DNA of 48,591 nucleotides from a virus (taxonomy: Duplodnaviria > Caudoviricetes): the IMG/VR virus record IMGVR_UViG_3300016667_000489, positions 1-48,591 of that record; one strand, given 5' to 3'. The position numbers and the translations under genes were made by a program. Below are positions 6,919-45,863 of this stretch, piece by piece (position 1 is the first letter of the stretch; the number at the start of each line of letters is the position of its first letter). Under the pieces are notes generated by a model. It was not told the origin of the DNA. It searched no databases and was given only the letters and a program-made list of their open reading frames with translations.

Positions 6919-7350
6919 ATGGCATTCAATTATAGAACCGGTCAAAATAACGTAGCAGAGTATCAAGCAAGTGGTTTACCGTATGTAACTCAATCGGTAG
7001 CTACTGCTGGGTCCGTATCAAATGTTCAATTTCCATTTGTAACAAATGAAGTTACAGTAAAAAATAATACTGCTGGCATTTTAAAAGTTGCATTCACAGC
7101 AAATGGTTTAGCAGGTTCTAACTTTTTTACGTTGCCTGTAAGTGGTTCATATGAAGCCCGGCTTCGTATTACCGATCTTTATTTGTCTGCTCAAGCAGGA
7201 TCTGTAACATATGAAGTTGTAGCCGGATTAACAACTATTCCAAGACAAGATTTCTATATTCTTACTGGAGCTCTTAATGTATTCAGCGGTTCAGAACAGC
7301 AGATCCTTGATTATGGACTCAAGGGTCTTGGTTATTCTGGTATCGGATGA
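6919..7350 (+). CDS. Hypothetical beta-rich protein, probably virion structural
   Basis: G/S/T/V-rich. Preceded by an ATATTTAA motif and followed by a terminator. Confidence 0.55.
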   Translation: MAFNYRTGQNNVAEYQASGLPYVTQSVATAGSVSNVQFPFVTNEVTVKNNTAGILKVAFTANGLAGSNFFTLPVSGSYEARLRITDLYLSAQAGSVTYEVVAGLTTIPRQDFYILTGALNVFSGSEQQILDYGLKGLGYSGIG

Positions 7351-8169: not shown

Positions 8170-8541
8170 ATGGAATCCTTCTTAATATTTGCAAGCTATT
8201 TCATAGTTTTTAGTCTTGGTTATATCTTAAGCAAGATGGATAATCCTACGCCTATCAACGTACATATCCAAAATCCAATAGCTCAAAATATTAATCCAGA
8301 ACCAGCATCAGAAAAACCAGTTAGTTTTATATCAAGAGTATCATCGGAAAATTCTACTAAAGGTTCTTTTGGTGGATTGCGTAAGATTGAGATTGATGAT
8401 AGGAAGTTTATAACAGAAGTTAAAACTGATAGTCTTGAGAAGAAATTTGATGATCTTGGTAAGACGACAGTAGCTAAAGACGAAGGTTTAAGTGCTAATG
8501 TTTCTAAACTGGCATCATTGAAAAAGTCTAAAGAGGACTGA
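8170..8541 (+). CDS. Single-pass membrane protein upstream of actin-like gene
   Basis: N-terminal hydrophobic helix FLIFASYFIVFSLGYIL. Confidence 0.65.
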   Translation: MESFLIFASYFIVFSLGYILSKMDNPTPINVHIQNPIAQNINPEPASEKPVSFISRVSSENSTKGSFGGLRKIEIDDRKFITEVKTDSLEKKFDDLGKTTVAKDEGLSANVSKLASLKKSKED

Positions 8542-8612
8542 TGGGGTTTAAAATTATAACAACTCAAGAGTTAGAACAAATGCAAGCAAAGAAAGCTAAA
8601 AGGAGTAAAAAG

Positions 8613-9626
8613 ATGACAAAGTTAGGTAGAGGTTTAGATGTTGGCACATCATTCGTTGTGTTAGCATCTGAACAAGAAGAAGGAACAGTTCAATATAAAG
8701 ATTTTCGTGATGCATTCTATCATATCAAGCCTTCAACACCAATCGCTGCAAAGATGATTGAAAAAGGTTTAGACGGTAAAACGTTTGTAAAAGATACAGA
8801 TGGAACCTTTATCCTTCTCGGCAAGGATGCTATTGAAAAGGCTGTAGAACGTAATGATAGCGCAAAACGTCCTATGTTCCGTGGCGTTGTTTCTTCAAAG
8901 GAAAAGGATGCACGTAAGGTTCTATCATATATTCTTAAGGAAGTAGCAGGAACTCCAGCAGAACAGGGAGAAAAACTTGTATTCTGTATTCCTGCCCAGC
9001 CTATCGATCAAGAAGATGAAGAGTTTGACGTTGGATATCACGAAGACGTTGTAAAGAAGATTCTATCCGATGTTGGTTATGCTCCAAGGGCTATCAATGA
9101 GGCAGAGGCTCTTTGCTATTCAGAACTTGAGAATGATGATTATACCGGCGTTGCTCTATCATGGGGCGCTGGCATGGTTAACGTCTGCGTAATGCTTAAC
9201 GGCGAGCCAGTATTGACCTTCTCTACTACCAAGAGTGGTGACTGGATTGATCGTATGGCTGCGGTTGCTACTGGTCAGACAGATAGCATTGTCCAGGCTG
9301 AGAAGGAAGAGGGTGACTTTACCATCGGTCAACCACATGATAATCAAATCCTTGCCGCTGTAGCTGCTTACTATGAGCGTCTTATTGATTATACTACCAA
9401 GCAACTTGCTGCTGCTCTTGCAGATCACAAGGATCTTCCAAAGTTCAAGGATCCTCTTCCTGTAGTAGTAGGCGGAGGAACTACCCAAGCCAAGGGATTC
9501 GTTTCTACATTTGCTAGAAAGCTTGAAGCTAATGGTTTCCCTGTTGCCGTCAAGGAAGTAAGACACGCCAAGGATCCGCTTCACGCTGTTGCCCGTGGTT
9601 GTTTAATCGCTGCTCAAATACTCTGA
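8613..9626 (+). CDS. Actin-like ATPase (MreB/MamK/FtsA superfamily)
   Basis: Phosphate-1 GLDVGTS, connect-1 INEAEA, phosphate-2 SWGAGM, adenosine VVGGGT, connect-2 PLHAVARG. An AGGAG SD supports start 8613 (ORF open from 8541). Confidence 0.9.
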   Translation: MTKLGRGLDVGTSFVVLASEQEEGTVQYKDFRDAFYHIKPSTPIAAKMIEKGLDGKTFVKDTDGTFILLGKDAIEKAVERNDSAKRPMFRGVVSSKEKDARKVLSYILKEVAGTPAEQGEKLVFCIPAQPIDQEDEEFDVGYHEDVVKKILSDVGYAPRAINEAEALCYSELENDDYTGVALSWGAGMVNVCVMLNGEPVLTFSTTKSGDWIDRMAAVATGQTDSIVQAEKEEGDFTIGQPHDNQILAAVAAYYERLIDYTTKQLAAALADHKDLPKFKDPLPVVVGGGTTQAKGFVSTFARKLEANGFPVAVKEVRHAKDPLHAVARGCLIAAQIL

Positions 9627-13052: not shown

Positions 13053-13982
13053 ATGAGCCTCGGACTTTGCTGTCAGTATATTGAACCCGTCAAGAAGCGC
13101 ACGGGTAATGTCGTCTATAAGAATATTATTGAGGAAAAGACCTTGCAGTTAGGTGCCTTCAAGGCTGGCAAGTATACTCTATCTCGTATTCGTTCTACCT
13201 ATCATCATAACGTTGATCAGCATATCAAGCTTATGCCAAAGCTTGTTAAGCTTAATATCCGTTCATTCCGCCTTACGTCTGGATTGTTCCCTCTTTGGGA
13301 TATGAATAGTCAGATGATTAAGGACGATGCTATTCTTGTTGGCAAGCTTGCAAAACTGGGCAAGTTGTTTACAGATAATGGGATCCGAGTCACTACTCAC
13401 CCTGGACAGTTTACAGTTATTTCCAGCGACAATCCAAATGTTGTTAAGAACAGTATCGCAGAGCTTGAATATCATGCATGGGTATTTGATGCTATGGGTC
13501 TGCCCCTTTCAAGCTATTCAGCTATTAACATTCATGGCGGTAAAGCAAATCGTTCAAGTGCTATTGTAAGCGTATATAAGTCTCTCCCTGATAACGTCCG
13601 TTCACGTCTTACCCTTGAGAATGACGAGAAGTGTTATAACGTTCAGCAGCTACTTGATGTGCATGATCGTTGCGGTGTTCCGGTAGTGTTTGATAGCCAC
13701 CATTTTACTTTCAATACCGCTAATATGTCCTTTGCCCAGGCTTTTGATGATACTCGTGCAACCTGGGGGAATGTCAAGCCCTTGCAGCATATTAGCAATA
13801 CCGAGCCTGGGTTTGAGAATGCGGCATTTAATCAGAAGCGTGCCCATTCGCAGTATATCCATCGTATCCCTGATATGCAGCTCGAGGCTATGCAAGCAGA
13901 TACTATTGACGTTGACGTAGAAGCCAAGCATAAGAACCTTGCGCTTTTGGATATGCGAAGTAAGTTCAATATTTTGATTTGA
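13053..13982 (+). CDS. uvsE: UV DNA damage endonuclease (UVDE)
   Basis: Motifs LGLCC, FRLTS, THPGQF, NIHGG, LTLENDE, FDSHH, HIS, EAKHK. Confidence 0.93.
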   Translation: MSLGLCCQYIEPVKKRTGNVVYKNIIEEKTLQLGAFKAGKYTLSRIRSTYHHNVDQHIKLMPKLVKLNIRSFRLTSGLFPLWDMNSQMIKDDAILVGKLAKLGKLFTDNGIRVTTHPGQFTVISSDNPNVVKNSIAELEYHAWVFDAMGLPLSSYSAINIHGGKANRSSAIVSVYKSLPDNVRSRLTLENDEKCYNVQQLLDVHDRCGVPVVFDSHHFTFNTANMSFAQAFDDTRATWGNVKPLQHISNTEPGFENAAFNQKRAHSQYIHRIPDMQLEAMQADTIDVDVEAKHKNLALLDMRSKFNILI

Positions 13983-18442: not shown

Positions 18443-19093
18443 TCAGCGGATTGGCTTACCGTTAGGCAAACGGAATTCTGTCTCAATCTTAAACTCTGCA
18501 TGGAAGCTAGGAATACCGACGTGATTTACGATATTGTGCTTCATAGCCTCGTCAGCATCAATGAACCAATCGGCGTGCTTCTTCTGGTGAACTAACTCAA
18601 GGAAATAATCCTCCTTGTGTCCACAGTTCTTTGCCATCATCTTGAAGATACGCTCATTCAAACGATCAGTCTCTACAGCGTTAGCCTTTACTTCTTCGTT
18701 CTTACCCCAATTCATGCTGGATACTTCGTGAATCATTACGGTAGCCGATGGAGCACAGAAACGATAGCCTTCGGCGCCACAGGTAAGAAGAACAGCGCCA
18801 CATGACATAGCCTTACCTTCTACGATGGTTGCAACCTTTACCTTGCAGGCATTAATCATATCAACCATAGCAAGGAGAGAATATACCTCACCACCATAGC
18901 TATCAATGATAATTGGTAGGATTTCCTGCTTTGCCTTTACGCAATGATCTTCTGCGGCTTCCAATTCTTCACAGAACTTATTTGCTGTTTGCTCTGTAAA
19001 GGCGCCAGAGAACTTGATATAGATCGGCATATAACACGCAGATTCAATATCCTTAACTCTTACTCTTTCATCTACGTTAACTGTATATCTCAT
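18443..19093 (-). CDS. clpP: ClpP-like serine protease
   Basis: Motifs IDSYGGEV, GKAMSCG (Ser), VMIHE (His), DWFIDADEA (Asp). Confidence 0.9.
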   Translation of the reverse strand: MRYTVNVDERVRVKDIESACYMPIYIKFSGAFTEQTANKFCEELEAAEDHCVKAKQEILPIIIDSYGGEVYSLLAMVDMINACKVKVATIVEGKAMSCGAVLLTCGAEGYRFCAPSATVMIHEVSSMNWGKNEEVKANAVETDRLNERIFKMMAKNCGHKEDYFLELVHQKKHADWFIDADEAMKHNIVNHVGIPSFHAEFKIETEFRLPNGKPIR

Positions 19094-26366: not shown

Positions 26367-26688
26367 TTATTTGTATTCCTGATAAGAAGCGATCTATCTT
26401 CAAACATATATCATAACATTGTTTGATATCATGTTTACCATTTTCGGATTGGATTTTGCATGACACTAAAGCAAAATCGCCGTCCTCTTCTTCTTCAAGA
26501 GTGACGACGATTCCATGATCATGTTTAAGTTGTAGAACGTCTATAGTGAGGTAGCTATATTCTTCTATTCTTATCTTTATGTTCTCTTTAAAGACAAAAA
26601 GGACCGAACCTACCGCACGGGTAGTCCAGCCCTCCGGAAAAGAACTATATAATGGGTGATTAAGTAATTCTGGATCTGGCATAATCAA
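26359..26688 (-). CDS. Hypothetical protein
   Basis: Co-oriented ORF with overlaps on both sides. Confidence 0.6.
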   Translation of the reverse strand: MIMPDPELLNHPLYSSFPEGWTTRAVGSVLFVFKENIKIRIEEYSYLTIDVLQLKHDHGIVVTLEEEEDGDFALVSCKIQSENGKHDIKQCYDICLKIDRFLSGIQIND

Positions 26689-27461
26689 TTCGCATTCTTC
26701 TTCGGACGACCACGCTTCTTGCTCGGGTAGAGGTGCTTGCTAATCATCGTCTGAAAACTCTTCATCCGGTTATCCTGCTTAAGAATATCGCCACGGAGAT
26801 AATCTGCAATATCCGTAGCATCCTGGCTCATAAGGAACTGGATCATCTTAAGCTCCCGGTTAGTCTTAATATCTTCCATTTCCAGCGGCGTAATCTGATA
26901 AGCCTTCTTGATCGCATCAAGGAAAGCGTTAACGCTATTGCAGGAAAGGAGAAGCGTAGCGTAGGCGTCTGCAACCTCTCGATGCGCCTGGGAGATACGC
27001 TCCATAGCAGCTTCCATACCATCACGGTTCTTGCCCGTCATAAGCTGCATCTTGGCGGTTCCAGAGGTTTCAAGCTTAAGTGCCATCATAGCAGTAATGC
27101 CATGAAGCTCATTGCCGATATTCTTAAGGGAAACATCGCCAGTATTATAGATCGCTTCCTTCTTACCCTTCACAGGCTTGGCAGCGACAGCATCAAAATC
27201 AATAGCCGCAAAATCGCTCTTAAGGGACTTCTTAATCGCCCAATCATCGCACACGTCAGCCGGGGAGAGCGGGAAGCCACTCCGAGGATCGGAAATATAA
27301 GCGAGCACGTTCTCTGCATTCACGCCCGGATTATACCATGCACGGTCCCGCTTCTCTGCGCTGAAATAATAGCTAACCAGCCACTCGGAAAGCTTTGCAC
27401 GATCACGAAGGCGGGCGAAAAGGGGATTGACGTTCTCGGGATTGATCTTCATGCTGTTCAT
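26685..27461 (-). CDS. Putative DNA-binding protein (degenerate sigma-region-4-like HTH, C-terminal AT-hook)
   Basis: SLKNIGNELHGITAMMALKLE and KRGRPKK. GGAGA SD, GC-rich. Confidence 0.55.
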   Translation of the reverse strand: MNSMKINPENVNPLFARLRDRAKLSEWLVSYYFSAEKRDRAWYNPGVNAENVLAYISDPRSGFPLSPADVCDDWAIKKSLKSDFAAIDFDAVAAKPVKGKKEAIYNTGDVSLKNIGNELHGITAMMALKLETSGTAKMQLMTGKNRDGMEAAMERISQAHREVADAYATLLLSCNSVNAFLDAIKKAYQITPLEMEDIKTNRELKMIQFLMSQDATDIADYLRGDILKQDNRMKSFQTMISKHLYPSKKRGRPKKNAN

Positions 27462-27557: not shown

Positions 27558-28448
27558 TCAGAAGAATTTACGAACAAGAGAAGGTCTACCGGCTGTTTCT
27601 TTTGCTCTAAGAGCATCTGTGAAGCGAGCAATGACTGGGAGATTAGAACCTTGAAGGTATAATCTGATAAGTTCTGCTGCTGCCTCTTCTTCTGCGCCTT
27701 CGCTTGCCATTGCTTGAAGGTTAACGAGAAGTTCAATATCTTTTTCTGTTGCTCTTGGCATTTTAAGAACGTCCATAACGAAATCTTCAACACCTACTTC
27801 ACCAAGACGTTCAACGAATTGTTTAGCTGCTGGAACTGCTAATGCTTTAAGGCTTTCTGTAGATTCCAGACCACCTCTTGATACAGCGGCTTTCTTGAAA
27901 CGTTCCATTGCTTTCTTTTCAAGTTCTGCTGCTCTTTGAACAGAGACGCCAAGTTCTTTAGCAATGTCTTCAAGGGATGCGCCCCCGGTCATGCCTTTTG
28001 TTTGATACTTTTTATCGGATTCTTCTTCGTCAGCCTCAACTTCTTCAACTTCTGCTGGAGTTTCTTCGCTACCAACAGCAGCTTTTGCTCCCTTCATGTT
28101 ATTGATCAGATCTTTGAGTTTATTTGGTGTCATAGCTGAATAACCAAGAATAGACTTACCATTGAATCCGTCAACATATAGCTTATCAAGGATTGCTTTA
28201 AGTTCTTCTTTTGAAGTGCGACCGGTAAGCTTTGATAGATAACGCTTTTGATCTGGAGAAATATCTCCTTCAGTTTTGCGTGCTAATAGCTTAAGAACGG
28301 CTTCTGCATTACGAAGATTTGTAGCAGAGATAAGAGAAGCAGCTTGATCACGGCGTTGTGGGCTTCTACCTTGTTGTGCTGCTACTTGTTCACTAACAGC
28401 TTCACGGATTAAGGTTTTAAGTTCATTCATTGAGATTTTCATAATCAT
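27558..28448 (-). CDS. Sigma70-region-4-like HTH protein with virion-type leader
   Basis: SLEDIAKELGVSVQRAAELEKKAM. N-terminal MKISMNELKTLIREAVSEQ. Confidence 0.7.
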   Translation of the reverse strand: MIMKISMNELKTLIREAVSEQVAAQQGRSPQRRDQAASLISATNLRNAEAVLKLLARKTEGDISPDQKRYLSKLTGRTSKEELKAILDKLYVDGFNGKSILGYSAMTPNKLKDLINNMKGAKAAVGSEETPAEVEEVEADEEESDKKYQTKGMTGGASLEDIAKELGVSVQRAAELEKKAMERFKKAAVSRGGLESTESLKALAVPAAKQFVERLGEVGVEDFVMDVLKMPRATEKDIELLVNLQAMASEGAEEEAAAELIRLYLQGSNLPVIARFTDALRAKETAGRPSLVRKFF

Positions 28449-31256: not shown

Positions 31257-32258
31257 TCATCCTCTTGTTTGAACGCCAGGTGCTTGTGTAGCTGGTGCTG
31301 CTGGTGTAGATGGGGAAAGTGGTGCTGTTGCTTGATTGCCCAATCCAGTTGTTATTGGCTTTTGTGCTGGAGGTTGAACTTGTGTGATTGGAACTGTTTG
31401 TGCTTGTTCGGCAGCAGCAGAAAGCATTGCATCTGGTCTTGGATTTGTAAGCGGCTCAATCTTATAGATTAAATCTAGATTGCACTTCTCACATACAGCC
31501 ATACGTGCTTCAACAACGTCCCAATTCAATTCTTTCATCATCGCAAAAAGGTAAGCCTTTTTATCAATTCCATAATCTTTGAAATATGCATGTTCCCACA
31601 TATCCATAACGATTACTGGAACGCAACCAAGAGGAATGTCTTTATCGTGACTATCAACTGTTACGTTCATAAAAACGTTACGATAAGGTTCCCAAACTGT
31701 CATGCCCCAGCCATTACGGGAAGCCATGCAAGCTGCCATGAAATCTTCTTGCCATGCTTCAAAGGTTCCCCAATCACGAGATAATCTCATATATGGAAGG
31801 CTATCTACTCTGATTTCACTATCAACATCAGAAATATTTGCAAAATATAGCTCGTGAAGCTTTACACCATTAAAGTTATATGTTTCATCTACTTTAAGAG
31901 AACGATATGAACTTGCGGTGCTCTTAACATCACCCTTATCAGCAGCCACTAATCCTGTAGCAACTTTATTAAAGGCTTCTACATAACCCTTATAAAGCTT
32001 GTCATGAGCTGTTTTTGCAGCATCTGAAAGCTTCTCTGTCTTCATAAGATGGGACTTTGGAATAAGAGTAAAACCTTCCTTAAGAGTGTTAACAGCAGTC
32101 TTTGCTGCACCAGTAAGCATTTGAACTACAGAAGGTTTAGATGCCTCTGTAAGCTTTTTAGGTTTTTCTGGGGTTAGTCCTTTGGCTTCAAGGGTATCTT
32201 TAACCGCTCTCTTAATTTCACCGTCTAAAAGGGATTGCAAATCTTTTGTAAGTTTCAT
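31257..32258 (-). CDS. Fe/Mn superoxide dismutase-like protein with N- and C-terminal extensions
   Basis: Motifs AH..LYKGYV, NGVKLHELYF, GWG, DMWEHAY..DY. Confidence 0.88.
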   Translation of the reverse strand: MKLTKDLQSLLDGEIKRAVKDTLEAKGLTPEKPKKLTEASKPSVVQMLTGAAKTAVNTLKEGFTLIPKSHLMKTEKLSDAAKTAHDKLYKGYVEAFNKVATGLVAADKGDVKSTASSYRSLKVDETYNFNGVKLHELYFANISDVDSEIRVDSLPYMRLSRDWGTFEAWQEDFMAACMASRNGWGMTVWEPYRNVFMNVTVDSHDKDIPLGCVPVIVMDMWEHAYFKDYGIDKKAYLFAMMKELNWDVVEARMAVCEKCNLDLIYKIEPLTNPRPDAMLSAAAEQAQTVPITQVQPPAQKPITTGLGNQATAPLSPSTPAAPATQAPGVQTRG

Positions 32259-36750: not shown

Positions 36751-37470
36751 TTAAATAGTATTAATGAAGCCTTTTATCCGTTCTTTGACTTCTGGAATAG
36801 ATTGATCCATATTTGTGGCATCAACATAAAAGAAGTTATCTCCAAATAACTGACGATATGGCTGTTCATTTGAATGAACCGATTGCCAGTTTTTTTCTAT
36901 TGTTCTATCTCTTAAACTTCTACCACCAGCTTCACCACGAGCACGATTACGTTCTAGAGCCGTTTCTATGTCTACATGAACAAACAACATAGCAACTTCA
37001 TATCCAGATGCTTCAAACGTTTTCTTTAAGTTTCTAATCGTATTATAATCGGCAGCAGTTCCATCTACTACGAAGTTCTTACCCTCCGCTGCTAATGCCT
37101 TCTGACGGTCTTTTGCTGCTTTTAATGCCATTGTAAAAGCTTTGCCATTACGTTGAGCAATCGATCTTAATCTCTCATATTCCGGCTTTAACTCTTCTAT
37201 TTTAGCAGTATCTCCAGCTTCAAGAGCAGCCTTCATTTTATTATTGATATCAAAGAATTCCAACTCAAACTTACCGATATTGAACGGCAATTTTTCTGCT
37301 TTAAGAGCTGCTTCATATGCTTCATCTGGATCTACAATTTCAAATCCTGTAATACCAAGACGACTACGTATTGTGCTCTTACCAGAACCAGGAGCACCAG
37401 CCATAAAGATAACTTTAGGTTTTAAGGCGCTTTCTACTAATAATCGGATATATTCTTTAAGAAGTTTCAT
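36751..37470 (-). CDS. Zeta-toxin/AAA_33-like P-loop kinase with leader motif
   Basis: Motifs GAPGSGKS, VDPD, VVDGT, ALERNRAR. Confidence 0.85.
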   Translation of the reverse strand: MKLLKEYIRLLVESALKPKVIFMAGAPGSGKSTIRSRLGITGFEIVDPDEAYEAALKAEKLPFNIGKFELEFFDINNKMKAALEAGDTAKIEELKPEYERLRSIAQRNGKAFTMALKAAKDRQKALAAEGKNFVVDGTAADYNTIRNLKKTFEASGYEVAMLFVHVDIETALERNRARGEAGGRSLRDRTIEKNWQSVHSNEQPYRQLFGDNFFYVDATNMDQSIPEVKERIKGFINTI

Positions 37471-38948: not shown

Positions 38949-39281
38949 TTAGCGACGCTTTTTCTTTTTAAGAGCTACGCCAATTGGAACACTATTGGTA
39001 ACAGGGGTTATGTTATATGCTTTTTCGTCTGGAACAGAAGTATCTTGTTCTCCAAAAACTTCTTCTTCTAATGGCAAATCAAGTAAACGTTCTTCTTTAG
39101 GAACCCGATATGTTACTTCTTGGTAAGAAATCTTTGTTTCTTCTGCTTCAGGTGTACTAATTTCTGAATTTGTGGGTGAATCTTCTACGACAGATTGTGG
39201 AAGTGCTACGGGTGCTGCTGGTACCTGTTGAGTATATCTTTTTCTTTCGTATCTAGCTTTTCCTCTTTTTAGAAATGGCAT
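38949..39281 (-). CDS. Hypothetical protein, likely disordered, basic ends
   Basis: Follows the sigma module. Ends KKKKRR. Confidence 0.6.
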   Translation of the reverse strand: MPFLKRGKARYERKRYTQQVPAAPVALPQSVVEDSPTNSEISTPEAEETKISYQEVTYRVPKEERLLDLPLEEEVFGEQDTSVPDEKAYNITPVTNSVPIGVALKKKKRR

Positions 39282-39283
39282 AA

Positions 39284-39550
39284 TTAATCCTTTTTTAATT
39301 CGCTGTATGCACGGTGAAGAACATCAGCCAATGCATTGTGAATCTCTTGAGAATTCATCATTTCCTCAATCTTTTCACGATCCGGCTTAACCTCTGTTTG
39401 CTTAACTATATTTGTAAGAAGCTTTTGCAACGCTGACATAAGCTGATTTCTGGCGGTTGCATGGTTCATCTTGTAACCAGCATTTGTCATAATGGCGGCT
39501 ATCTTACGAAAGTCTATGCCCTCGTCTAATGTGATATATTCTTTTTTCAT
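39284..39550 (-). CDS. HTH protein resembling the missing sigma region 4.2
   Basis: DFRKIAAIM...MNHATARNQLMSALQKL. ATGA-coupled to the sigma gene, with an AAGGAG SD. Confidence 0.7.
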   Translation of the reverse strand: MKKEYITLDEGIDFRKIAAIMTNAGYKMNHATARNQLMSALQKLLTNIVKQTEVKPDREKIEEMMNSQEIHNALADVLHRAYSELKKD

Positions 39551-40272
39551 GGGATCTCCTTTATAACATCAAAACGTAGGAGAAGGATATATCTCTCCTT
39601 TTCAGACAAACTCTTAAGCGCATTCTTTACAAGACTAACCAATTCTAAATTGCCATATCGGGTTTCAATATTTTCATCTGAAACTAATAGGTCTTTAAGA
39701 GTATTGGTATTCTCACCGCCGCCAGACTTGATCTGTTCATCCATAGAACAAACATTCTTTGAACGATTTGCCATTGTAATGGATTGCAACATCTTTGCAC
39801 TACAACCATCTTCTTCTTTTTCCTTGGCATCGGCATTTGCAATGTAGTCCTGCAAAACTATATTCTCTTCTCGTAGCTTCTTCTGGATCTTATTGTTAGC
39901 GGTTCTAACATGAGAAGGAACGTGAATGATAGGCTCTACATTTAGAAGATAGTTGTTAATCGCTTGTCGGATCCACCATGTTGCATAAGTGGAGAATCGA
40001 TAACCAAGATCAGGCTTGTATCCCTCAATAGCAGATAGAAGACCTATGATGCCTTCCTGCATCATATCTTCCTTCAAGAGCATATATTCTTTCTTGTTAT
40101 TATAATACTTGTTGATTATGTAAGTAACAAGAGCCTGATTTTGTTTTACGATTTGATTACGAGTTTTAAGGCTTTTAGTAGAGACGTAATCAAAATAGAT
40201 TTGGTCAATCTTACTTGGTGCTTTCTCTAATACTGGCTCCTCTTCCATCAGATCCATTTTTATTGCTTCCAT
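39547..40272 (-). CDS. Sigma70-family RNA polymerase sigma factor ending after region 4.1
   Basis: DMMQEGIIGL, RFSTYATWWIRQAI, IHVP.H, SMDEQI, LSEKERYILLLRF, then a stop. Confidence 0.92.
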   Translation of the reverse strand: MEAIKMDLMEEEPVLEKAPSKIDQIYFDYVSTKSLKTRNQIVKQNQALVTYIINKYYNNKKEYMLLKEDMMQEGIIGLLSAIEGYKPDLGYRFSTYATWWIRQAINNYLLNVEPIIHVPSHVRTANNKIQKKLREENIVLQDYIANADAKEKEEDGCSAKMLQSITMANRSKNVCSMDEQIKSGGGENTNTLKDLLVSDENIETRYGNLELVSLVKNALKSLSEKERYILLLRFDVIKEIP

Positions 40273-40738
40273 CTTCTTTTATTTCTTTCTTGATCTTTCG
40301 GTCAACTGCCCACATAAGGTAGGTGGTAACGCAGCGTGACTTTACTTGTTCAAATCTACGCCGGTTCACATAAAGTTTCAACCGTTTAGACAACTTAAAT
40401 CCTGTTTTCCATGCGTCAAGCTCCTCTTCAACTCTTTTTACTTTATGAGTTATGCTTGCGCTTCCGAAGCTTTCAAAAACAGCATTATAACGTTCATCAT
40501 ACATACGATTGTTCTGGCATAGCATCATATGCCCAATCTCATGTAGCAATACATAGAACGTTAGTTCGGTTGTCCGGTCTTTCTTTATGACCAACTTGTT
40601 TTTATGAACAATAGCAGAATCTGCGTTAGGGTCTTTGCGAGAAACGTATTCTACTTCCCAGCCCTTACTGGCGCAATATTCTTCCAATACATGAATCTGA
40701 GACTTCCAGAGCCCACGAGATAGATTAATCTTACCCAT
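40211..40738 (-). CDS. HExxH metallopeptidase (ImmA/IrrE-like)
   Basis: LLHEIGH...EELDAW, GAGG SD. Confidence 0.7.
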   Translation of the reverse strand: MGKINLSRGLWKSQIHVLEEYCASKGWEVEYVSRKDPNADSAIVHKNKLVIKKDRTTELTFYVLLHEIGHMMLCQNNRMYDERYNAVFESFGSASITHKVKRVEEELDAWKTGFKLSKRLKLYVNRRRFEQVKSRCVTTYLMWAVDRKIKKEIKEDGSNKNGSDGRGASIRESTK

Positions 40739-40795
40739 TGGAACACCTCACAACCCAGTTTATCATGCCAAGAAAACTTAATAAACTACAGATAA

Positions 40796-42874: not shown

Positions 42875-44143
42875 TCAGCGGCGAGCGCCACGCTTACGGG
42901 GCGCAGGGGCAGCAGCCGGGGGCACATTCGCACCAGCCGTAGCCGTTGCAGCCTTCGCAGTCTTCGCCGGAACCTTGAGATCCGACGTATCCTGACCCGT
43001 GGTGCGGCGCACCATAAGCTGCTCAACGTGCGGGTGAACCTTCGTGAGATTCTTGATATTCTTCTGGAGAGTCATCCACATGGCCATCATGGGCTCCGGA
43101 GGAGCATCGTGCATGAAGCGGGCAAGTTCAAGAGCCTGATCCGCATTGAGGTCATGCTTCTTGAGCCAATCACCCATCTTGCTCACAAGCTCGACATACA
43201 TTTCATTCGACAGACGACCAAGCTTGCGCTTTGCAGCCTCCCAATCCTCGAGCATTTCCTCGCACGACACCTGACGATCACGCTCGGCGCAGAACTTCTT
43301 GAACGAACCGGCAACCTCGATACCGCAGAAAGCACCCGTGAGGACGTAGAACATATGATCCTCCGGATTCTCATACAGACCCAGGCGGGTAAGCTCACCA
43401 TCAAGCTTCATCCACGAACGACGGTCAGGATACTTCTTGTTAGGCTCGAAAGCACCATCATGCTCGATAAACCGCTGATTCTGGCGGAGGAAATCGACAA
43501 GGGCACTATCGCACCGAGTCGAAGCGTAATCAAGGAACTCTTCCTTGGTAGGATCAAGGTGAACCGTAGCGGCTCGGCTGATCTCGGCAGGATCCGACTG
43601 ATTAACCGTGTAAGCATCACCGATATTCTCGGCAATAACGATGATCGTCTCGGGGTGGAGGCGATGCCCGTAGAAAGCCTTGCTATCCGCAAGCTGGAAG
43701 ACAGCCTGCTTAACACCCTCAAGCGCACGGTTACGCTCGTCAAGGAAGAGAACGACCGGGAACTCACAAGCCTGGATTAGCCAATCGCAGGGACGGAAGG
43801 TGGTGCTGTTACCCTCAAGGATAGGCAGACCGATGATATCACCCTCAGTCATTTGCGAAAGACGACGCTCAATGATCGGCATACCGAGATCATAGCGCCA
43901 CTCGCTCACCTTGTTAGAGGCACGACCATGCGAAAGGACACCTGCACCAAGAACCTCGACGGCACGGCGGCAGTTAGCGGCATCACGGTAGAAATCCGAG
44001 AAACGAAGCGCAGCGGACTGATAGACACCCTCCGACTTACCCTTGGCGTGTCCACCACGGACACAAACCGTGATATCGGGCGAAACGGAAGCGACCATGC
44101 GCTGAAACGACTTCATGCTGACGGGGAGAGCGAGATTCGACAT
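42875..44143 (-). CDS. MoxR-like AAA+ ATPase
   Basis: Walker A GGHAKGKS, RLSQMTEGDIIGLP, Walker B VVLFLDE, sensor-2-like RRSW. Confidence 0.88.
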   Translation of the reverse strand: MSNLALPVSMKSFQRMVASVSPDITVCVRGGHAKGKSEGVYQSAALRFSDFYRDAANCRRAVEVLGAGVLSHGRASNKVSEWRYDLGMPIIERRLSQMTEGDIIGLPILEGNSTTFRPCDWLIQACEFPVVLFLDERNRALEGVKQAVFQLADSKAFYGHRLHPETIIVIAENIGDAYTVNQSDPAEISRAATVHLDPTKEEFLDYASTRCDSALVDFLRQNQRFIEHDGAFEPNKKYPDRRSWMKLDGELTRLGLYENPEDHMFYVLTGAFCGIEVAGSFKKFCAERDRQVSCEEMLEDWEAAKRKLGRLSNEMYVELVSKMGDWLKKHDLNADQALELARFMHDAPPEPMMAMWMTLQKNIKNLTKVHPHVEQLMVRRTTGQDTSDLKVPAKTAKAATATAGANVPPAAAPAPRKRGARR

Positions 44144-44495: not shown

Positions 44496-45863
44496 ATGAT
44501 GAATAAGCAAAATGTTCTCCGTGCCGGTGGTCTTAACGACGACAAGCCTGTCAAGCGTGATGGTGCTTCTGATCCTGATAATCAGCTTCGTCGCCCTGAC
44601 GAGTTTGATTTTGATTTCCTTGAACTCTATATGCAGGATCCTTTCCTTGGTGGTGTCTCGCTGGACATTACGAAGGATGCCGATCCTAACTGCCCTACCG
44701 CATACATTGGTGTCCGTAAGAATGGTGGACGCCATGACGTGATCATGGGCTACTCTCCCAAGTTTATGCGAGAGCTTACCCGTGAGGAGCGTAAGGGCGT
44801 TATCTGCCACGAGATTTACCACATGGTTTTCTCGCATATCTTCCATCGTGCGGTGGCGCAGGGTGCAGATCAGATGCTCTGGAATTGGGCTACTGACCTT
44901 GCGATTAACTCCATTATCGGTGCAAACAAGCTTCCCAAGCTTTGCCTTATCCCTGGTGTTCGTCCTCTTGAGAAGCAGGAAGATGGTAGCATGAAGCCCG
45001 CCAGCAATCCTTATGCGGATTTCATTGCCAACGCCGAGCCTCTACAGGCTTCGGATTACTACTTTGACGAGCTTAAGAAGATCCGTGACGAGCAGGGTGA
45101 CGGTGAGAGTGATATCCAGGCTGTCTTTGATAGCATGGGCACGATGGATGATCACGATAGCTGGGGTGACATTGACCCCGAGACTGCCGAGGAACTTCGT
45201 GATAAGATGAAGGATCTTATTGATCGTGCAGCCAAGCGTGCGGATCGTAGCAATCAATGGGGTTCGGTTCCTGCTCACATTCAGGAAATGATCCGCAAGA
45301 TGCTTTCCAATGAGGTTGACTGGCGTAGCATCATTCGCAACTTCATCGGTCGTGCCCGTAGCACGGATCGTCATAGCACGATCAAGCGCATCAATAAGAA
45401 GATGCCTTACGTTCACCCTGGCGTTAAGCGTCCGCTTATTGCTAACTTCGCTTGTTTCATGGATCAGTCGGGTTCTATGGCAGACGAGGATATTGCTATG
45501 CTCTTTGGTGAGCTTGGCAATCTCGCTAATCTCACGCAGCTTGACGTGTTCCACTTTGACACGGAGATTGACGAGGCTTCGCATAAGGTTTGGAAGAAGG
45601 GCGATAACACGCCGCAGATGCTCCGGACCCGTTGTGGTGGCACCGACTTTGACGCTGTTGCCAAGTTTGTTAATAACCCGAAGAATCGTGGTCGTTGGTC
45701 GGGCATCATCATTCTCACAGACGGTTATGCTCCGAGCATGAGTGCGGTTAACGGTGCCAAGGTGCTCTGGGTTGTGACGCCGAGTGGCACGATGGAGCAC
45801 GTTCGTCCTGGCGACCTTGCCTGTAAGATGAACGCTGATAGCGGTAAGTTCAAGGCTTACTGA
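44496..45863 (+). CDS. Metallopeptidase-vWA protein (DUF2201-like)
   Basis: CHEIYH, WNWATDLAINS, MIDAS DQSGS, GGTDF, ILTDGY. Confidence 0.9.
   Translation: MMNKQNVLRAGGLNDDKPVKRDGASDPDNQLRRPDEFDFDFLELYMQDPFLGGVSLDITKDADPNCPTAYIGVRKNGGRHDVIMGYSPKFMRELTREERKGVICHEIYHMVFSHIFHRAVAQGADQMLWNWATDLAINSIIGANKLPKLCLIPGVRPLEKQEDGSMKPASNPYADFIANAEPLQASDYYFDELKKIRDEQGDGESDIQAVFDSMGTMDDHDSWGDIDPETAEELRDKMKDLIDRAAKRADRSNQWGSVPAHIQEMIRKMLSNEVDWRSIIRNFIGRARSTDRHSTIKRINKKMPYVHPGVKRPLIANFACFMDQSGSMADEDIAMLFGELGNLANLTQLDVFHFDTEIDEASHKVWKKGDNTPQMLRTRCGGTDFDAVAKFVNNPKNRGRWSGIIILTDGYAPSMSAVNGAKVLWVVTPSGTMEHVRPGDLACKMNADSGKFKAY

Follow-up and report, generated by a model that had tools for sequence, protein, structure and literature searches.

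Two-subunit sigma factors are known from several systems, namely T4 gp55/gp33, SPO1 gp33/gp34, SigO-RsoA, and Tn916 Sig7-Sig8, as described in the available portions of the sources (bioRxiv 10.64898/2026.10.01.756105, PMC7826278, PMC10141391, and PMC2988020). In addition, Francisella MtvS1/MtvS2 has been proposed to be a split alternative sigma with a possible mix-and-match use (PMC13627669, available part), and RpoD-like and minimal sigma factors have been described for jumbo phages, the split form being unmentioned in the accessible text of that source (PMC7824862).

Here, we analyzed a sigma70-family gene and the small gene that follows it in a 48.6-kb virus record, the whole of which is referred to as the window, together with related contigs of up to 461 kb. 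T4 gp55/gp33 and SPO1 gp33/gp34 likewise are phage-coded two-part sigma factors that act on the host core polymerase, and T4 gp33, which does not read DNA, shows no similarity to sigma in its sequence (PMC2988020, available part). The split core of the window differs from T4 gp55 in that it is not a gp55 homologue (it matches PHROG 351, E 2e-43, and not PHROG 234), and in related records a gp55-like protein is encoded by a separate gene. SigO-RsoA of Bacillus subtilis and Tn916 Sig7-Sig8 are likewise sigma70-family factors encoded by two neighboring genes, one chain serving the -10 function and the other the -35 function. In the accounts available for these two systems, the sigma2 and sigma4 domains lie on separate chains, whereas the phage factor is cut inside domain 4, between regions 4.1 and 4.2. 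Unlike in both of them, the phage core is RpoD-like, the helix of its partner is rewritten and accompanied by two additional helices, and the two parts also occur re-fused. Compared with the RpoD-like (sigma70 group 1/2) single-chain phage sigma factors, region 2 is close, whereas region 4.2 is off the chain here in 110 of 110 cases.

A cut between regions 4.1 and 4.2 was not found in the listed entries and text passages of the openly accessible literature searched. The original prediction regarded the locus as a candidate for an undescribed system, which goes too far, since two-subunit sigma factors beyond T4 are already in print (SigO-RsoA and Sig7-Sig8, in the portions available). The cut site inside domain 4 would be new, and a two-subunit sigma as such is known.

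The sigma core and its partner gene

The two open reading frames, their ATGA overlap, and the Shine-Dalgarno sequence AAGGAG of the second gene were all found as originally described for a split sigma with a separate coupled gene (Table 1). The C-terminus of the sigma core reads ...LSEKERYILLLRFDVIKEIP, and the stop lies 7 residues past the F. Pfam Sigma70_r2 matched the window core with E 1.3e-14, and region 2 was present in 53 of 53 family members; it is RpoD-like, with FSTY in all 108 cores inspected and the Q437 equivalent in 105. Sigma70_r4 matched the window core at profile positions 1-17 of 50 only, with E 0.25. The core had been said to hold regions 2, 3, and 4.1. Region 2 and the region 4.1 stump stand, whereas region 3 was undetected by Pfam in the window protein; it was detected in 27 of the 53 aligned family members, and region 1.2 in 26 of them. 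For the 88-aa partner, no convincing family match was obtained with Pfam or PHROG.

Table 1. Features of the split sigma locus and of proteins with helix-turn-helix (HTH)-like stretches in the window
Feature	Position	Strand	Remarks
Sigma70-family core	39547..40272	-	241 aa; region 2, region 3-like stretch, and region 4.1 stump, without the region 4.2 HTH
Partner	39284..39550	-	88 aa; HTH plus two more helices; putative completing part of domain 4
Shine-Dalgarno sequence AAGGAG of the partner gene	39556..39561	-	In the terminal part of the sigma ORF; spacing to the ATG, 5 nt
ATGA stop/start overlap of sigma core and partner	39547..39550	-	Seen in the sequence; no gap in X3 record 18
HExxH metallopeptidase-like gene	40211..40738	-	PHROG 87, E 1.3e-4; overlaps the sigma start
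Candidate promoter of the peptidase-sigma-partner unit	40757..40786	-	GTTTA and TGA-TAAACT; the G of GTTTA lies 24 nt upstream of the -10 hexamer
296-aa protein with a region 4.2-like HTH	27558..28448	-	HTH at residues 156-185; Sigma70_r4 E 4.5e-4, below the cut-off
258-aa protein; weak HTH-like stretch, AT-hook at the C-terminus	26685..27461	-	AT_hook E 0.03

The junction reads ATC-CCA-TGA, and the -1 frame reads CCC and then ATG. The junction is also covered by a contig from a run of another study (X3 record 18, positions 39393-39684), which shows 2 substitutions and is free of gaps. As for read runs, X1 is a possible source sample, and X2 and X5 do not span the junction. The best matches to the window stretch came from freshwater and estuary metagenomes. 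As far as the sequence can tell, the ATGA junction presumably reflects ordinary translational coupling.

A profile search with the small protein yielded 65 viral loci, in 64 of which a sigma core without region 4.2 lies upstream on the same strand. The exception, L087, has a partner and no sigma within 5.1 kb upstream and 6 kb downstream. In a reciprocal search with the cores, the partner was present at 70 of the best 80 of 578 loci, and the remaining 10 carry their own 4.2 HTH. Among 146 distinct sigma factors, all 110 with a partner scored below 0 bits on a 4.2 profile, and 35 of the 36 without a partner scored 17-64 bits, the last one being cut by a contig end; the latter side of this comparison is partly circular, because 19 of the sigma factors without a partner were used to build the profile. 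The cores end 5-37 residues past the R[FY][GDN] of region 4.1 (55 distinct pairs). In each of the 8 records scanned, a single core and a single partner were present. No cultured phage with the partner, or with the Cys-rich third gene described below, was found, and a search of 185,579 species genomes gave 4 matches, all on contigs of metagenome-assembled genomes (MAGs).

The split is thus conserved in relatives, as 110 distinct pairs have the partner and cores without region 4.2. A quick tree of 98 rows has a branch (SH-aLRT 99) that separates the split cores from 16 full-length sigma factors, which fits a single origin of the split, given a root among the full-length sigma factors. That an assembly error or a recent pseudogene made the split has practically no likelihood: nothing beyond the look of a broken gene speaks for it, whereas the same junction is present in the contig of the other study and the 110 conserved pairs extend down to a core identity of about 21%, so that this explanation was ruled out. 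As separate observations, a second sigma70-like ORF in G023 (L213:1483-2172) also stops right after region 4.1, and a split-family core in a 436-aa frame (L441:1247-2557) has about 155 extra residues within region 2, possibly an intein or another insertion.

The original prediction also considered a frameshift switch, in which a programmed -1 frameshift at ATC-CCA-TGA yields a fused, full-length working sigma. Such a slip is possible in the window and in the close relative L043, and naturally fused forms exist. Nevertheless, this idea fails, because half of the pairs are separated by other DNA (56 of 110) and the frames vary among the 54 adjacent ones: 31 are in the -1 frame, 19 in the +1 frame, and 4 in frame with a stop, so that 23 of the 54 lie in frames other than -1. 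A synonymous P-site -1 slip is allowed in only 4 of 21 four-base overlaps, and a GIY-YIG endonuclease gene separates core and partner in the closest relative, whose core is 91% identical. We regard the frameshift as very improbable. GIY-YIG homing endonuclease genes were seen between core and partner at two loci (L044:5285-5977 and L050:5351-5977).

For the HExxH gene, which had been proposed as a possible regulator within the system, the distribution is narrow, at 16 of 110 loci, 15 of them among the 28 loci of the window's subclade. Its relatives are IrrE/M78-like; of the 4 that were scanned, 3 matched Peptidase_M78, with E 2.5e-5 at best. Judged by this distribution, the putative peptidase is accessory and restricted to the subclade rather than a core part of the system. 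Two further genes recur around the pair. A conserved gene with a helical N-terminus and a low-complexity tail directly follows the partner in 79 of 110 loci (e.g., L179:3831-4223 and L072:6267-6605) and is in one frame with the partner in L119; the gene that follows the partner in the window (38949-39281) does not cluster with it. A conserved gene of 90-110 aa lies just before the sigma gene in 60 of 110 loci (e.g., L089:4816-5145 and L106:4825-5091) and in 0 of 28 in the window's subclade, where the peptidase often replaces it.

Elsewhere in the window, Pfam matches revealed an actin-family protein (8541-9626, Volactin, E 1e-63), an Fe/Mn superoxide dismutase (31257-32258), and a zeta-toxin-like P-loop kinase (13053-13982). 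A divergent pair encodes what we take, from reading the sequence, to be a P-loop-like ATPase (42875-44143), for which Pfam gave no match at E 0.01, and a DUF2201 metallopeptidase-vWA protein (44496-45863); L087 has a similar pair after its partner gene. From reading the sequence, we also presume that the product of 18443-19093 is UV-endonuclease-like and that of 36751-37470 ClpP-like.

The partner and region 4.2

The original prediction identified the partner with the missing region 4.2. The sequence likeness on which this relied proved weak, whereas the position of the partner domain in fused relatives and the modeled fold agree with it. By hhalign, the partner matched region 4.2 with P 0.014 and a probability of 3% over 16 columns, which is not significant. 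Partners reached at most 5.6 bits on the 4.2 profile, Sigma70_r4_2 matched 1 of 68 partner-family members (E 0.02), and PDB sequence searches with the partner profiles returned chance rows only. A value of 0.88 to an ESM Atlas cluster with 19% Sigma70_r4 is a lead only. Modeled alone by AlphaFold2, the partner reached a pLDDT of 84.5, and a fold search with this model gave a best Z of 4.0 and 2 sigma region 4 rows.

A search of longer proteins detected a 451-aa sigma in which the partner domain is fused after region 4.1. This first fusion family comprises 11 related proteins, with linkers of 50-60 aa in the three that were measured, and sits inside the window's subclade on a long branch of the quick tree. 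Another fusion, P0059 (one record, a MAG contig), has an 18-aa linker. It scores about 120 bits against the split cores and about 70 bits against the first fusion family, of which it is apparently independent.

The region 4.1 stump and partner domain of the fusion P0055 were modeled by AlphaFold2 without sigma4 sequences in the alignment (pLDDT 84.6). In a VIA fold search with this model, 24 of the top 50 rows were sigma chains aligned over region 4, including 2h27 (Z 5.9, rmsd 2.2, 69/69 residues) and 2o8x (Z 5.7, rmsd 1.4, 61/61 residues). The top three rows were LuxR/NarL-like and other non-sigma regulators with Z 6.8-7.2, and every Z was below 8; Foldseek gave no match at E<=0.001 with either the partner model or the fusion model. 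These results suggest that the partner and region 4.1 form a sigma4-like fold, as predicted from a model of a fused relative and not of the window pair itself.

For the window pair, complex prediction gave 0.51, compared with 0.00 for the best control, which supports docking weakly; the runs had at least 57% of contacts in common, with a partner pLDDT of at least 66. Among reference pairs, 116 of 157 solved and 2 of 215 mismatched ones attained the mark applied, with only 18 solved pairs and both mismatches reaching it at <=0.60, and the halves of a split gene tend to pass through likeness to solved structures. Docking of the partner on the core, like the sigma4 fold, is a prediction of the models. 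The conservation of the pair, the mutual exclusion of partner and own region 4.2, the fusions, and the fold of the fusion model together bear out the proposal of a two-piece sigma, whose second part likely completes domain 4.

The predicted recognition helix carries a near-invariant M-N-H-[AS]-[TS]-[AV]-R-N in 107 partners. With the hhalign register extended by two residues, the place of RpoD R584 is occupied by H in 106 of the 107, that of E585 by A or S in 106, and that of R588 by R in all 107. RpoD R584 and E585 read positions -31 and -33, and RpoD E458 reads the TG motif (PMC2613000, available part). As the R584 and E585 places are taken by H and A/S, the partner would read -31 and -33 loosely. 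At the position of the split cores that matches E458, glutamate is absent from the six commonest residues.

Promoter classes and candidate readers

RNA polymerase beta and beta-prime were not found in 5 of 5 records, 2 of which have terminal repeats (controls 14/14), and a bacterial DnaN-type sliding clamp was not found in 5 of 5 records either. Upstream of the called genes of the window and 8 relatives, two motif classes were distinguished. Class II, (A/C)TANTTA, was enriched in 9 of 9 genomes (in the window, 14 of 67 genes against 1.1 expected; in G011, 28 against 1.6), and its reverse motif was rarer than the forward one in all nine, yet above expectation. No fixed upstream box accompanied class II in any single genome of the nine. 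TAAA is overrepresented 20 nt ahead of class II sites (32 of 345, compared with 10.6), which may represent tandem -10 boxes. The sites peak 11 nt before the ATG, and those of class I, TGn-TAnnnT, peak at 12 nt. In the window, class II sites, as candidate late promoters (e.g., of the genes at 6919, 3888, 36729, and 37470), often lie 11-12 nt before the ATG, which would imply many leaderless mRNAs. An N-terminal tag resembling MKI(T/S)xxxLKxLI(R/K)E is common to many window proteins (27558, 36729, 37470, 3888, and others), occurs in 10 of 346 class II and 2 of 277 class I genes, and is possibly a head-packaging signal.

Class II resembles the T4 late box. T4 late promoters have no -35 element (PMC2988020, available part). 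The core had originally been proposed as a possible reader of -10-only late promoters, which is not supported, since a separate gp55-like gene was found in 8 of 8 related records by its own profile (it was not found in the window fragment). The gene matched phrog_234 in 3 of 5 records (controls 0/14), and a PHROG scan of 145 of the 175 mid-sized G002 ORFs at E<=1e-4 left it undetected. Judged from these matches, the gp55-like protein would be a better reader of the class II -10-only late promoters than the split sigma. Given this separate gp55-like protein, the split RpoD-like factor would be an additional sigma, and the late role is probably not its own. This candidate late sigma has 240-310 aa (L330:453-1178 in G002, with relatives in G001, G003, G004, G005, G007, G010, and G011), and the phages bearing it use a DnaE-type polymerase, as seen in the window, and appear to lack a DnaN clamp.

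TGn extended -10 sites are common in these genomes, and the -35 box of class I varies among them: G001 and G002 mostly have TTGAC, the window and G007 share GTTTA, G005 has TTTAG, G010 and G011 have GTGAA, and G004 has TGCAAA, with nothing clear in G003. Six other GTTTA sites of the window share the spacing of the candidate promoter in Table 1. A non-TTG T[G/T]nA at -23/-22 from the -10 box was enriched (P<=5e-4) in 8 of 9 genomes, and TTG was found at these offsets in 0 of 30 sites in G010 and 0 of 41 in G011. The GTGnA at -35 of the pre-late promoters in G010 and G011 (L362-L396) points to an unusual host sigma or a phage-coded reader. A further promoter class, sought in 578 upstream regions, yielded only more TAnnnT sites. 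T[G/T]nA is only a candidate target, because it was derived from the same genomes, varies under the same helix, overlaps the host consensus, and may be read by a host sigma.

Besides the partner, other proteins may read the -35 box. A Cys-rich third gene of 84-113 aa with a canonical 4.2 is present in 11 of 34 large records (11 of 46 overall), and passes the Pfam Sigma70_r4 cut-off (E 5e-10 and 1e-8); viral contigs hold 233 relatives of it. Its product at L188-L198 (e.g., L190:1477-1731 and L197:1318-1605) has four invariant N-terminal cysteines and an invariant T-R-M in 4.2, and at the inspected loci it is divergent from a gene that we take, from reading the sequence, to be phoH-like. A search of 11 large records from the window's subclade, the complete G002 included, did not detect the third gene, except that a G007 relative of the 258-aa window protein weakly matches its profile (E 0.001). 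The 296-aa window protein, which has relatives in G010 and G011, scored 16.7 bits on the 4.2 profile; the 258-aa protein has relatives in G001, G002, and G007. These phages, as judged from their sequences, have more than one candidate -35 reader, as other subclades carry the third gene with its far more canonical 4.2.

Proposed mechanism and significance of the split sigma

We lean, with modest confidence, toward the reading that the two genes encode one two-subunit pre-late sigma for the host polymerase, with a rebuilt domain 4 and relaxed -35 reading. The core would serve to bind the RNA polymerase of the host and to open the -10 box; the partner is predicted to pack on the region 4.1 stump, rebuilding domain 4. 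We infer that the rebuilt domain would hold the beta flap within the resulting holoenzyme and read a relaxed -35 box at pre-late promoters. The targets would be TGn-TAnnnT with T[G/T]nA at -35, the assignment of targets being the weakest step. Speaking against this reading are the weak sequence likeness of the partner to 4.2, the non-sigma regulators that head the fold search, the canonical 4.2 of the third gene, a -35 box that varies under one and the same helix, and the position matching E458, where glutamate is not among the six commonest residues.

The partner may instead be a structural or regulatory piece of domain 4 that resembles T4 gp33 and reads no DNA, T[G/T]nA then belonging to the host sigma. 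The replaced R584/E585 base-reading pair, and an invariant helix alongside -35 variants that change from genome to genome, would agree with this, as would the precedent of gp33, which binds the flap and reads no sequence (PMC2988020, available part). However, the residues at the start of the predicted recognition helix are near-invariant, the -35 box in G010 and G011 is sharply defined and non-TTG, and the records lack a detectable bacterial sliding clamp in 5 of 5 cases, and we therefore hold this explanation to be rather unlikely. Alternatively, the -35 reader could be another gene, either the Cys-rich 4.2 protein or one of the 258- and 296-aa HTH proteins, with the partner acting as a competing cap or inhibitor on the stump. 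Both the Cys-rich gene, with its match above the Sigma70_r4 cut-off, its occurrence in 11 of 46 records, and its many viral-contig relatives, and the score of the 296-aa protein, which exceeds that of any partner, lend it weight. It is nevertheless unlikely, given the apparent lack of the Cys-rich gene from the large records of the window's subclade, bar the weak match in G007, and given that no protein but the partner is linked to the core in all 110 of 110 cases and that the fusions found, in searches aimed at the partner, contain the partner.

Equally doubtful is an exchange of readers, in which an open socket at region 4.1 lets the same RpoD-like core take either the NHATARN partner or a distant 4.2 protein, possible candidates for the latter being the Cys-rich protein and the 258- and 296-aa proteins of the window. 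An independent, co-transcribed DNA-binding regulator, with the core working alone on extended -10 promoters, appears quite improbable; the weak sequence likeness of the small protein to 4.2, its best fold matches to LuxR/NarL-like proteins, and the common TGn sites would suit it, whereas the strict mutual exclusion with an own 4.2, the fusions in the 4.2 position, and an HTH fold that appears only with the stump present argue against it.

If the two-subunit reading is true, two chains can assemble domain 4 of a sigma in trans, and this arrangement has been retained across a large lineage of uncultured aquatic jumbo phages, with re-fusion at least once and probably twice. It would offer a natural test of the flap-binding versus the -35-reading contacts of domain 4 and possibly a two-input transcription tool. 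If the readers are swappable, the promoter class would be changed by exchanging a 10-kDa plug and not the whole sigma. The candidate promoter classes, together with the gp55-like sigma, provide a testable sketch of the transcription program of these phages.
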